The notes under the pieces were generated by a model, which had not been told where the DNA came from, searched no databases, and saw only the letters and a program-made list of their open reading frames with translations. From Minisyncoccota bacterium (GTDB lineage: Bacteria; Patescibacteriota; Minisyncoccia; Phycocordibacterales; SBAW01): DNA of 64,000 nt. Shown here piece after piece: positions 5,967 to 10,602 of the stretch (position 1 is the stretch's first letter; each line of letters opens with the position of its first letter). The translations under genes were made by a program, and so were the position numbers. Where the stretch lies: the NCBI GenBank assembly GCA_035546575.1, contig DASZWN010000001.1, positions 49,082 through 113,081 of the forward strand, in the 5' to 3' direction.

Positions 5967-5986
5967 CCTGCCTGTCGGCAGACAGG
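5967..5986. repeat. Palindromic repeat copy (CCTGCCTGTCGGCAGACAGG) abutting the tRNA-Arg 5' end
   Basis: A member of the GC-rich palindrome family. It overlaps the first nucleotide of tRNA-Arg(GCG). Confidence 0.75.
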
Positions 5987-6057
5987 CTCTCGTCGTTCAA
6001 TGGATAGGACGGCAGCTTGCGGAGCTGCTGATGTAGGTTCGATTCCTACCGAGAGCA
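5986..6057 (+). tRNA. tRNA-Arg (anticodon GCG)
   Basis: GCTCTCGTCGTTCAATGGATAGGACGGCAGCTTGCGGAGCTGCTGATGTAGGTTCGATTCCTACCGAGAGCA has a perfect acceptor stem, T-arm and D-arm. The anticodon stem is GCAGC/GCTGC with loop TTGCGGA, giving anticodon GCG and G37. The D-arm is identical to that of tRNA-Arg(CCG), including the Arg identity base A20. Confidence 0.7.
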
Positions 6058-6064
6058 CCCGTTT

Positions 6065-9000
6065 TTATATCTCCTGATAATTCGGTATAAGTTGCACGGT
6101 TATGCTTCTGGTGCTGGGCGGATCCTGGTTATTAGTACACGTCAGCGTGTATTTGGTCGGCTGCGTGATAGGCTGCGTCGTGGCTGTGCCGGTAAATGGA
6201 TTGCTGGAGCCGTTCCATAAGCTTGTAATATCGCCGCCTGCAGTTCCGCTTGCGGGAGTCGGCGAAATACTACAGCTTATGCCGTTTGCCATGCCCGGTA
6301 TGTTCCAAGACAGCGTCGATGAGCCACCCAGGCGCACGCGGGTCGCGGTGAAGGAGTTGGCGCTGAGCGTCGGTACCGATGGAGTTGACGGGACGCATGC
6401 GGAGCCATTGAACGCGTAGCCGCTCGGGACGCTGCAGGTATTGTCCGGATTGCCTGTGCATCCCGAAGGTACCGTGGTCTGAAAGCCTGGAAGATTGGTG
6501 CACATATCCGGAACACATCCGCCGTTGCCATCGGACGCCTGGCCAACTGCACACACCTTCACTTGCACGGTAGCGTAGCCGTTATAGTTGATGTAGTTAA
6601 AAGTTTTTGCCTGTGCGGAAAATACAAACGCCTTTCCCGCGTCTGCTGATGCCGGCGTAAAAGTATACGTTTTTGTCGCATCGGGTTTCTGCCAACAATT
6701 TGGATCAGAAGCCGCTGGCGGATTCGGAGGAGCAACAAGATTACAGTTAACAGTATTACCGTCCTGTGAATCGCATCCCGAGTCGCAATTGATAGCGGTA
6801 GCCTCAAGAGGGTCGCCGGTTGAGGTATATTTGATTACGATAATGCCCTGGGCCCCGACTCCTTCATTGCTCTGGCTGCCTCCGCCGGAGCCGCCACCGC
6901 CGCCATACAAACCACCGTTACCGCCCGGAGCGGCAATCGAGGAACGACACCCGCCGCCTCCGCCGGAGCCGGCCGTCGGCGTCGCGCCCGTGTATGCAGA
7001 ACCGTTCCACACGTTGGTAGCAATCCACTCGGCACCATTACCACCAGCCGCAGGCGGGTTGCCGCAACCGCTGCCCGCGCCGCCAAGCCCCGCATCCCCT
7101 GCGCCGCCGCTGTCTCCCGCTTGACCATTCCCGTTGGGACCTCCTGCGCCGCCGCCGTTGCCGGAATTGTTATTATCGCCGTAAGCGCCGGCGCCGCCCG
7201 CATACTTAACAGTGCCGACGCCGCCGCTGACAGCGCCTCCAGCTCCACCATTGTTGCCATTGCCGCTGTTGCCGCCCTTAGCACATACCGAAACCGTATC
7301 GACGCAGGTATTTGAGGAACCGGCAGTCCTATTAAAGAAAGTGTCGCCGCCCGGACTGGCCGGATTCCCTTGAGCCGCGCCTTGTCCTACCCTGTACGCC
7401 ACGGATGCGCCGTGGGTGAGAGAAACATTAGTCTTTTTTGAATATGCGCCGCCTCCGCCTCCGCCGCCCCGACCTCCTGTAAAAGCCGAGGTGCCGCCGC
7501 CGCCTATAACTTCGATGCTGTTATTGGCGCTGTTCCAATCGCTTGGCACGGTCCATACGCCAGAACCTGCGGCAGTAATAAAGACGGTTTTTTGAGTTTG
7601 ATTGGTACTGCCAGCATATGTGGCGGCTACAGTTACTTGCTGTCCCACCCCAACTGAAACTAATTTTCCGTTCTTGTTGCCGCTGCTGTCTGCCGCTTGA
7701 AAACCGGCGTTATTGGCTTGGATAGTAGCGGTCGGGGGCGGATACAAAACGCAGGTGTTACCCGAACGATAACTACCCGAAGTAACCGTGTTGCAGGGCA
7801 CACAAACCCCGCCCTGTACGATAGCGGTAGGATCCGAGCATGTCTGTACGTCAACTTGTATTTGCGGCTGTCGATAGGAAGGATTCTGCATACCGTATAT
7901 CGTGTAGCTGCCTCCAGTAGGAGCAGTGCCGGAGGATGCAGCTGGCGGAGAACCGCCGTTTGCGGGAATCCCTTCTTGAGGCTGATAGCCGCCGCATTGG
8001 AGCGTAACGCTCTGCGAATTGCTGAACGTCTGCGTAGAACTGTCGATAAGGTTCGCCGTTTCAGTGCCCTTGTACCACGCTCGATCCGCTGTCTGGACAT
8101 TGAGATCGCCATCGGTAACAAGCGTCCAGCTAAGACAGCTAATAATGTAAGCGCCTTGGCATGCGGCGCCAAACCAAACATAATTCTGGTTCGGCAAACA
8201 TTGATAAGAGAACTGGACCGGGGTGTATTTAGGGACCTTAAGCGTGGCGGCGGGCGTATTTTGTGTCGGCGCAGTAGCGTACGCCCAATGCGTTGTTGAA
8301 GTGTTACAAGGATTTGTTTTTTTGACATTCGTGAGATCGAGACCGACATTAACCGGAGCAATGCCTGCAGTCTGCGCTACTGCTTGCAGGACCGCAACAC
8401 GCGTACCCGCAACGGTAGTAGAAAAATTAGGACCCATGCATACGCCCTGCGCCGTGTCGCTCGGGAGCGATATGCCGGCCGTACCGCCATTAGTGCCGCA
8501 TAGTTGGGGCGAAGGGCTATTGGTGATCCAGGCATTAAGAATGCTTGTGGGAGTGGCAAATTGGTTTGTGTAGCCCCATCCGCCATCTTGGTGGTAAATA
8601 TAGCCATTATAGGGCAATGGGTAAGCAGCAAAAGGAGCGATCGCGTAGGGCGAGACTGTCTCAATCGCCGGAGTCCCGTTGTTAATGGTTATTGTGGCGC
8701 TCGCCGGCGTACCGACGGAATAGGCCGAGGATGCGGCTATAGTCGCCTTGAGCGTAGTGCTGCCGCCCGATGTTTTTTGAAGCGCAGTAATAGGAACCAC
8801 TACCGACATAGTGTTCGCCGGAATAGTAACCGTTGCGGGAGCGGCGGAGTAGTCTGTCCCCACCACCGCAGTACTCCCGCTTCCGCCGTATACAAGGTCC
8901 ACCGACACCGCAGGCCAGGTTGCTGGCCCGTTGCGGGTAACAGTAAATGCTCCCGGAGTACCGATGCAGGAATTACCGCTGTTGGTCGGCGCGGTGATGG

Positions 9001-9901
9001 AAACGGTGAGAGGTGCGCTGTAATTAATTACAATAAGCCCGGGAGCGCCGGCTCCTCCGCGGCGGAGGGTGCCGGACGATGGAGCAAAAGCTCCGCCGCC
9101 GCCCGCGCCGTATGTGCCTCCCGCTCCTGCGTCTGCTGCGTATCCAGAACCGCCGCCTCCGCCGCCGGACCCGTACGCGGGTGAGGAAGAAAATTCAGTT
9201 CCTGCGTTTCCTGGGAAGGCGGCCCTGATGCCGCTTGTGATCCCGCCGGTGCCGCCTGCAGTGCCATCCCCTTGCCCGCCATTGGTGCTATTACCTGCCA
9301 CACCGGCGGCGCTTGGGCCGCCGGCACCGCCCCCTCCGCCGCCGGAAATAACCATGCCTGCCCCGCCTGCGCCACCGCTATTTTTTATTGAGCCGGTGCC
9401 TGACGCGACTCCTCCTGTAGCCGATCCTCCTGCTCCCGCGGCGCCCCCCCCGCCGCCTGTACCTGCGCCCCCCGCCCCTCCGCCTTTCGCACAGACGGAG
9501 GCAGCCGCGCAGGCGGCGCCGTTAAACCACGCATCTCCTCCTGCGGTTGCCCCGGAAGTTCCGCCGCCCGTGCCTCCGGCGGGAAGAAAATATGTCGCCG
9601 TCGATCCGCTGAGCGTTATGTTTACCGATTTTGAATATCCACCGCCGCCACCACCACCGCCCCTTCCCGTCGTGTTGCTGGCGACTCCGCCGCCGCCTCC
9701 TCCAGCCGCAATAACCTGCACCGTGTTGCTCGCATTGTTCCAGTCAGAAGGCACGGGCCAGGTTTGGTTTGACGCGCTTGTCGTAGTGAGATAGATCGGC
9801 CCCACTGGAAACGTAGGGGCGGCCATGACAAAGGGTGCGGGGCCTGCAAAAAATACCAAAAGCGCGAAATAGAAAAGAAACTTTTTAACGTAACTGTTCA
9901 T
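6065..9901 (-). CDS. Giant glycine-rich secreted surface protein (1278 aa) with an internal duplication, Calx-beta-like and Cys-rich Ig-like modules
   Basis: There is a signal peptide (MNSYVKKFLFYFALLVFFAGPAPFVMA) followed by two homologous modules. Module 1 begins near aa 48 (WPVPSDWNNASNTVQVIAAGGGGGG...GGGGGGGGYSKSVNITLSGSTATY) and module 2 near aa 760 (WTVPSDWNSANNSIEVIGGGG...GGGGGGGAYSKKTNVSLTHGASVAY). A VVGTDYSAAPATVTIPANTMSVVVPITAL segment is Calx-beta-like. The C-terminal region is Cys-rich. Confidence 0.8.
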   Translation of the reverse strand: MNSYVKKFLFYFALLVFFAGPAPFVMAAPTFPVGPIYLTTTSASNQTWPVPSDWNNASNTVQVIAAGGGGGGVASNTTGRGGGGGGGGYSKSVNITLSGSTATYFLPAGGTGGGTSGATAGGDAWFNGAACAAASVCAKGGGAGGAGTGGGGGAAGAGGSATGGVASGTGSIKNSGGAGGAGMVISGGGGGGAGGPSAAGVAGNSTNGGQGDGTAGGTGGITSGIRAAFPGNAGTEFSSSPAYGSGGGGGGSGYAADAGAGGTYGAGGGGAFAPSSGTLRRGGAGAPGLIVINYSAPLTVSITAPTNSGNSCIGTPGAFTVTRNGPATWPAVSVDLVYGGSGSTAVVGTDYSAAPATVTIPANTMSVVVPITALQKTSGGSTTLKATIAASSAYSVGTPASATITINNGTPAIETVSPYAIAPFAAYPLPYNGYIYHQDGGWGYTNQFATPTSILNAWITNSPSPQLCGTNGGTAGISLPSDTAQGVCMGPNFSTTVAGTRVAVLQAVAQTAGIAPVNVGLDLTNVKKTNPCNTSTTHWAYATAPTQNTPAATLKVPKYTPVQFSYQCLPNQNYVWFGAACQGAYIISCLSWTLVTDGDLNVQTADRAWYKGTETANLIDSSTQTFSNSQSVTLQCGGYQPQEGIPANGGSPPAASSGTAPTGGSYTIYGMQNPSYRQPQIQVDVQTCSDPTAIVQGGVCVPCNTVTSGSYRSGNTCVLYPPPTATIQANNAGFQAADSSGNKNGKLVSVGVGQQVTVAATYAGSTNQTQKTVFITAAGSGVWTVPSDWNSANNSIEVIGGGGTSAFTGGRGGGGGGGAYSKKTNVSLTHGASVAYRVGQGAAQGNPASPGGDTFFNRTAGSSNTCVDTVSVCAKGGNSGNGNNGGAGGAVSGGVGTVKYAGGAGAYGDNNNSGNGGGAGGPNGNGQAGDSGGAGDAGLGGAGSGCGNPPAAGGNGAEWIATNVWNGSAYTGATPTAGSGGGGGCRSSIAAPGGNGGLYGGGGGSGGGSQSNEGVGAQGIIVIKYTSTGDPLEATAINCDSGCDSQDGNTVNCNLVAPPNPPAASDPNCWQKPDATKTYTFTPASADAGKAFVFSAQAKTFNYINYNGYATVQVKVCAVGQASDGNGGCVPDMCTNLPGFQTTVPSGCTGNPDNTCSVPSGYAFNGSACVPSTPSVPTLSANSFTATRVRLGGSSTLSWNIPGMANGISCSISPTPASGTAGGDITSLWNGSSNPFTGTATTQPITQPTKYTLTCTNNQDPPSTRSITVQLIPNYQEI

Positions 9902-9939
9902 GAGAAAATAGCTACTCCCCTATTGTACACTCCTTTTGT

Positions 9940-10500
9940 GTGCCCCCGCCTATTGTTTCCACACGGAGACAGTATACTTGTGCGGTGATCCTTACTCTTG
10001 CAGCACTCTCGGGTTTTCTGCTGATGCTGGCATTGCCGCCTTTTTCCGCTCCCCTTTTCTCCCTTATGGCGTTCGCGCCGATGGTCTTTGTCGCCGCGCG
10101 AAGGGCCCCCATCCCCGCAAAACACCTCTTCGTCGCGGGTTTTATTGCCGGCGCCCTGCCCGGCGGATCGCTCTCGTACTATATGTTAAGCGACTTCCCC
10201 TGGCCGGGGGACGCGCCGCTCGTGCTGGCATTCATCCACTGGAGCCCGGTGCTGTAGACGCTCCTTTTTTGGAGGAGTGGGCGGCACCACGCTCGTTTTG
10301 TACAATAAATTTCGTTTCAATTCTCCGGCCCTGAATGCGGCGCTCTTTGCGGGGATGTACCTGGTGTGCGAGCAGCTCGTACAACTGCTGTCGGGTCACT
10401 ATTGCCGTCGCAAAAGTCTGTCTGGGCACCGCCTCGCGGCCCTGCAAGTGCAGGGCATCGCTCCGGCGTTCGATTCCTGTCGTGCGTCACTCAGGTGACA
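9940..10500 (+). pseudogene. Possible decayed remnant of apolipoprotein N-acyltransferase (lnt-like N-terminus, frameshifted and truncated)
   Basis: ORF 9940..10257 reads AALSGFLLMLALPPFSAPLFSLMAFAPMVFVAARRAPIPAKHLFVAGFIAGAL, which resembles the first Lnt transmembrane segments. Similarity continues in a shifted frame (…ALFAGMYLV…). Only about 190 codon-equivalents remain before tRNA-Arg(CCG). Confidence 0.3.
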
Positions 10501-10530
10501 CACTCCAAGAGACAAAAACTTCGTTTTTTG

Positions 10531-10602
10531 TCCTCTTGGCAGGAATCGAACCTGCATCGCCTCCTTCGGAGGGAGGCATCCTATCCATTGAACGACAAGA
10601 GG
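10531..10602 (-). tRNA. tRNA-Arg (anticodon CCG)
   Basis: The reverse complement is CCTCTTGTCGTTCAATGGATAGGATGCCTCCCTCCGAAGGAGGCGATGCAGGTTCGATTCCTGCCAAGAGGA. The anticodon stem is CCTCC/GGAGG with loop CTCCGAA, and the first acceptor pair is C1-G72. Confidence 0.75.

Follow-up and report, generated by a model that had tools for sequence, protein, structure and literature searches.

Organisation of the segment

The segment at 5986-10602 of the window, i.e. of the whole stretch of 64,000 nucleotides analysed here, is bordered by two tRNA-Arg genes and contains only two coding sequences, a giant surface-protein gene and the stub of an lnt-like gene. The features of the segment and its left edge are the following:

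5967-5986, no strand: 20-nt perfect palindrome CCTGCCTGTCGGCAGACAGG, copy of a short dispersed repeat
5986-6059, plus strand: tRNA-Arg(GCG) (ARAGORN and Rfam), left border of the variable slot
6065..9901, minus strand: intact gene of a 1278-aa secreted modular surface protein, a single ORF
6068..6367, minus strand: C-terminal Ig-like domain with the conserved tail PxΦQEI-COOH (here IPNYQEI)
6500..10280, no strand, approximate: young mosaic tract shared with the related genome L001 (sliding identity, synonymous divergence)
6803..7597, minus strand: glycine-rich domain 2 (residues 769-1033), predicted phage tail-fibre-tip or ALK-GRD-like fold
9002..9820, minus strand: glycine-rich domain 1 (residues 28-300), Pfam PF21722 over residues 42-294
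9985..10402, plus strand: lnt-like pseudogene, codons 1-141 of about 520 (tblastn, LNT_N, lesion check)
10403..10468, no strand: deletion junction, about 65 bp unassignable, replacing about 3.0 kb of L001, L083 and L086
10468..10529, no strand: 3' trailer of tRNA-Arg(CCG), alignable with L001
10530-10602, minus strand: tRNA-Arg(CCG) (ARAGORN and Rfam), right border of the slot

An earlier note, made from the letters alone, had described two tRNA-Arg genes on opposite strands with identical D-arms, a palindromic repeat overlapping a tRNA 5' end, a 1278-aa glycine-rich surface-protein gene and the frameshifted, truncated 5' part of an lnt-like gene; each of these is present.

The two tRNA-Arg genes show 78% complementarity over 72 nt. 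Common to both is an identical 18-nt stretch, GTCGTTCAATGGATAGGA, which spans the D-arm, and their T-loops are also the same. tRNA-Arg(GCG) is a component of the old backbone and is conserved beside the p176 gene in at least 18 related loci. tRNA-Arg(CCG) is inverted here, as opposed to the tandem orientation in sister clades. An inverted T-loop-like copy of 12 nt, GTTCGATTCCTG, occupies 10468-10479 in its 3' trailer, and a permissive Rfam scan detected no tRNA pseudogene near this gene in either the window or L001. The last base of the palindrome is the first base of tRNA-Arg(GCG), position 5986. The window contains 8 matches to the 18-nt core of the palindrome, spread over 5 loci, where chance would give 0.02. 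L001, the closest syntenic genome, lacks the copy that lies at 5967-5986 here, which is therefore a local insertion.

The giant surface-protein gene

A gap of 5 nt separates the end of the giant gene from tRNA-Arg(GCG). Its product has a glycine content of 19% (GC2 of the gene 0.63) and is 100% identical to the NCBI protein VHD31_00335 (Candidatus Paceibacterota). The N-terminus, read by eye, resembles a signal peptide (MNSYVKKFLFYFALLVFFAGPAPFVMA) and is followed by glycine-rich domain 1, a central Cys-containing region, glycine-rich domain 2, a Cys-rich linker and the Ig-like C-terminus. The dN/dS relative to L001 is 0.19, and on sequence grounds the gene is intact and under purifying selection.

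Glycine-rich domains 1 and 2 are internal duplicates, which reach 392 and 390 bits against the domain HMM. PF21722 (Gly_rich_2) reaches 22.9 bits on the window protein (cut-off 24.3), in two stretches, and P0002, an 87%-identical orthologue, is a precomputed PF21722 match. The predicted domains share their fold with solved PF21722-type members. Domains compared were those of the cyanophage Pam3 tail fibre (7ypx) and of mycobacteriophage Bxb1 gp33/gp29 (9d93), besides the glycine-rich domain of ALK/LTK (7lrz, 7ls0). The match to phage tail fibres is strong, with 34-35% sequence identity to the phage domains and conserved glycine runs. Here, by contrast, two copies are combined with Ig-like and Cys-rich modules, and the protein is secreted by a cell instead of belonging to a virion. 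The giant-protein search yielded no match in the PDB by sequence and only a weak one in PHROGs.

The C-terminal Ig-like domain is 58% identical to the C-terminus of P0003, the gene of which adjoins tRNA-Arg(GCG) and p176 in the genome L082. The domain adopts a generic Ig/FN3 fold, and no PDB entry matched it at E<=0.001. The domain with its QEI tail was considered as a dedicated sorting signal and rejected: the profile matches 12,710 cluster representatives, mostly at internal tandem repeats that end short of the QEI tail.

The lnt-like remnant

The ORF at 9940..10257 (plus strand) matches positions 1-73 of the 159 positions of Pfam LNT_N (E 1.1e-5, 26.2 bits, cut-off 27.1). With an intact orthologue of 520 aa as query, tblastn recovers residues 5-97 (77% identity) and then, shifted to the next frame, residues 97-141 (58%). 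Lnt residues 142-520 have no matching sequence in the window, and the catalytic CN_hydrolase domain is absent. Base by base, two lesions interrupt the reading frame, a TGG>TAG change at 10255-10257 and a +1 frameshift caused by an additional T in the run 10265-10270. The stub, which keeps the first 27% of the gene, is a real pseudogene as judged from its sequence.

Known Lnt enzymes combine LNT_N (PF20154) and CN_hydrolase (PF00795), and the stub aligns to residues 1-141 of intact orthologues. Those of relatives exceed the Pfam thresholds for both domains; the L001 Lnt passes LNT_N at 37.9 bits, and CN_hydrolase is present in L001, L083, L086 and L003. However, NCBI labels the relatives' proteins only 'nitrilase-related carbon-nitrogen hydrolase', and the secreted proteins neighbouring lnt lack a lipobox. 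Over residues 5-141 the stub is 71% identical to the Lnt of L001 (L086 and L083: 50-52%). The analysis covered 64 kb of this genome, beyond which a second lnt may lie; a protein search detected no close one.

Between the end of the stub and tRNA-Arg(CCG) lie 127 nt. About 3.0 kb is missing here, comprising lnt codons 142-520 and a p603-like gene, which encodes a secreted paralogue of about 600 aa. It is the distal 3' part of lnt that was lost, which faces away from the giant gene. In the junction at 10403-10468 no p603 remnant rose above noise.

Comparison with related genomes

The comparison set contains at least 10 related Paceibacterota genomes, all of them metagenome-assembled. In 7 sister-clade and outgroup genomes the two tRNA-Arg genes are arranged in tandem, 8-32 bp apart, and the slot between them is empty. 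The clade of the window genome possesses 4-11 kb at this place, and all insert-carrying genomes form this one clade, with L086 as sister of the window genome. The segment is thus accessory and indeed island-like, as the earlier note had called it.

The usual insert contains a giant modular surface protein, an intact Lnt-like enzyme of about 520 aa and p603. The order in L001 is tRNA(CCG) - p603 - intact lnt - giant gene - tRNA(GCG), and it is shared by L083/L084 and L086, with lnt 52-56% and p603-like genes 53-59% identical to those of L001. An intact lnt thus lies beside the giant gene in L001, L083/L084 and L086 (giant proteins of 1278, 1579 and 1838 aa), in agreement with the earlier reading of the remnant as what is left of a gene at this position. 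The note would have been refuted by relatives that share the gene order but have no intact lnt there, and these relatives do not show that pattern. Since the slot is empty in sister clades and lnt belongs to the usual insert content, lnt counts among the cargo of the insert and was not a resident gene that the insertion damaged.

Within the insert-carrying clade the content of the slot varies. L086, the closest backbone relative, possesses an unrelated LamG-type giant gene, L003 a Gly_rich_2 protein and lnt between convergent tRNAs, and L011 a TraG/VirD4-like gene; in L082 and the P0006 contig other giant genes occupy the slot. The genome L002, top Mur-ligase match of the genome scan (71-72% identity), is rearranged at the slot; L001 and L086 are closer (about 80%).

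Mosaic divergence

Relative to L001, the giant gene and the lnt stub consist of patches of 97-99% identity alternating with patches of 50-75%, also inside the lnt pseudogene. Sliding identity places 90-99% patches at 6561-6800, 7546-8295 and 10043-10162. Synonymous divergence (dS) is 0.36 for both the giant gene and the stub and 1.6-3.0, i.e. saturated, for the flanking genes. Central windows of the giant gene have a dS of 0.05-0.3, with the lowest values in a part that is not glycine-rich. The last ~140 codons show a dS of 1.25-1.55; owing to its old divergence (dS 1.3-1.6) the C-terminal Ig-like domain is regarded as vertically inherited backbone.

The low dS against saturated flanks, together with the different giant gene of L086, points to recent homologous recombination between lineages. 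Near-identity to L001 in patches, despite the saturated backbone, likewise suggests that the locus was recently overwritten by DNA of another lineage. Horizontal exchange of the giant gene is supported by these sequence comparisons.

Boundaries and composition

The tRNA genes had been proposed as integration targets, with direct repeats to be sought at the boundaries and a deviating composition to be sought in the giant gene; the window bears out none of this. Pfam and NCBIfam searches detected no recombinase or integrase in the segment. Apart from the 12-nt inverted T-loop match in the trailer, no copy of either tRNA 3' end occurs in the window within 5-6 mismatches, and att-like copies of these ends are likewise absent from L003, L083 and L086. 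Among the genomes searched, L001 alone possesses att-like repeats: the tRNA(CCG) 3' end recurs there as a perfect direct repeat of 23 nt, and a third copy (83%) lies between lnt and the giant gene, which hints at some past role of site-specific integration.

The GC3 of the giant gene is typical (0.56 vs 0.561 +/- 0.079). Its tetranucleotide profile is an outlier (z 4.4), which stems from the glycine-rich coding parts (z ~1.1 in the non-glycine centre) and was therefore rejected as evidence of foreign origin. Phage-mediated transfer of the giant gene was also considered and rejected: no close relative occurs on viral contigs, where matches are at domain level only (36-52% identity).

Discussion

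The locus is probably a clade-specific hypervariable surface locus between paralogous tRNA-Arg genes, recently overwritten by homologous recombination between lineages, from which p603 and most of lnt were deleted and which likely encodes an adhesin. A single deletion of about 3 kb would have taken out p603 together with three-quarters of lnt from its 3' side, and the remaining stub would then have acquired its nonsense codon and +1 frameshift. Recombination with DNA of another lineage, recent in this scenario, may have used as anchors the giant gene's 3' end, which is old and conserved, and the lnt/tRNA side. Such turnover may reflect diversifying pressure on an interaction between adhesin and receptor. 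Because its glycine-rich domains have a predicted phage tail-fibre-tip fold, the giant protein is most likely a receptor-binding adhesin on the cell surface, as fold similarity and domain architecture suggest. The host cell of the locus is presumably episymbiotic.

The suggestion of the earlier note corresponds to a classic integrase-mediated genomic island at a tRNA-Arg gene, which would have brought in the surface gene and truncated a resident lnt. The flanking tRNAs, the empty slot of the sister clades, the tRNA(CCG) 3'-end repeats of L001 and the TraG/VirD4-like gene of L011 are in keeping with such an island. We nevertheless consider it quite unlikely, given that the segment in the window has neither integrase nor boundary repeat and its GC3 is native, and that patchy similarity is typical of homologous recombination and not of a single insertion. 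As regards lnt, the island is already largely refuted: in four relatives the gene is intact beside giant genes, inside the insert and not outside, and here it was lost at the end distal to the giant gene, jointly with p603. Of the proposal that the surface gene was gained, or grew, at its neighbour's cost, the horizontal exchange of the giant gene therefore stands, and the cost to lnt is not supported.

Two further explanations were weighed. Purely vertical inheritance, with the similarity to L001 due to unusual nucleotide constraint or to codon or composition bias, would agree with the identical gene order of L001 and with the extreme composition of the giant gene. It is most improbable, as dS is lowest (0.05-0.25) precisely in the central part that lacks glycine-richness, patches of 98% adjoin patches of 50-75% even within the lnt pseudogene, and the backbone sister L086 has an unrelated giant gene and an lnt only 50% identical to the stub. 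A collapsed or chimeric assembly of co-occurring strains, or a binning error, might alternatively have produced the patches, or the deletion and the frameshift. Both MAGs, with locus-tag prefixes VHD31 and VHD55, were apparently submitted in one series, and within shared repeats the assembly of short-read MAGs can jump from one strain to another. Such an artefact is very improbable nonetheless: the locus is embedded in long contigs (of 287 kb and 105 kb), where the backbones on either side are collinear but deeply diverged, identity changes gradually over 3.7 kb without a single switch, and lnt carries three independent lesions.

The recombined, hypervariable locus resembles tRNA-associated islands, e.g. 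the pathogenicity islands of Enterobacteria, in its tRNA neighbours, its accessory adhesin-like cargo, its restriction to one clade while sister clades lack the segment, and its horizontal exchange. Att-like repeats of a tRNA 3' end also occur, but in the relative L001. It differs in that integrase and bounding direct repeats are missing here, that composition by codon position is native, that it lies between two otherwise adjacent tRNA genes, and that its turnover takes the form of patchy homologous recombination. The surface antigens of Neisseria and pneumococci are encoded by mosaic genes shaped by homologous recombination between species. As in these, near-identical and divergent blocks alternate over a diverged backbone, and conserved ends enclose a variable receptor-binding middle. 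The difference is that the present case concerns an uncultivated CPR bacterium and a multi-domain gene, about 1300 codons long, to which lnt-like and paralogous genes are linked.

The giant protein, the Lnt-like acyltransferase and p603 might also form a conserved module that builds a host-contact surface, in which the Lnt-like enzyme modifies or anchors secreted proteins with the PxΦQEI-COOH tail and tail-fibre-like cassettes are swapped as host-range determinants. We regard this as unlikely. If it were true, the loss of lnt and p603 would mean a changed display of the adhesin here, and the swapping of glycine-rich cassettes would resemble the swapping of tail fibres by phages.

As a whole the locus is well-documented and fairly ordinary genome plasticity; adhesin loci beside tRNA genes, mosaic surface genes and decaying neighbours are all familiar. 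The result is of use for the annotation of related genomes and overturns nothing. Literature on PF21722, on Lnt in Patescibacteria and on tRNA-Arg/inosine in CPR yielded nothing usable, and to our knowledge almost nothing is known about the host attachment of CPR/Patescibacteria. The locus offers a concrete candidate adhesin with a confidently predicted binding domain of phage tail-fibre type, and evidence for the exchange of surface genes between lineages with synonymously saturated backbones. There is also evidence that at least one lineage can do without the linked Lnt-like gene, and the slot between tRNA-Arg(GCG) and tRNA-Arg(CCG) is a recurrent address of the variable surface genes of this clade.

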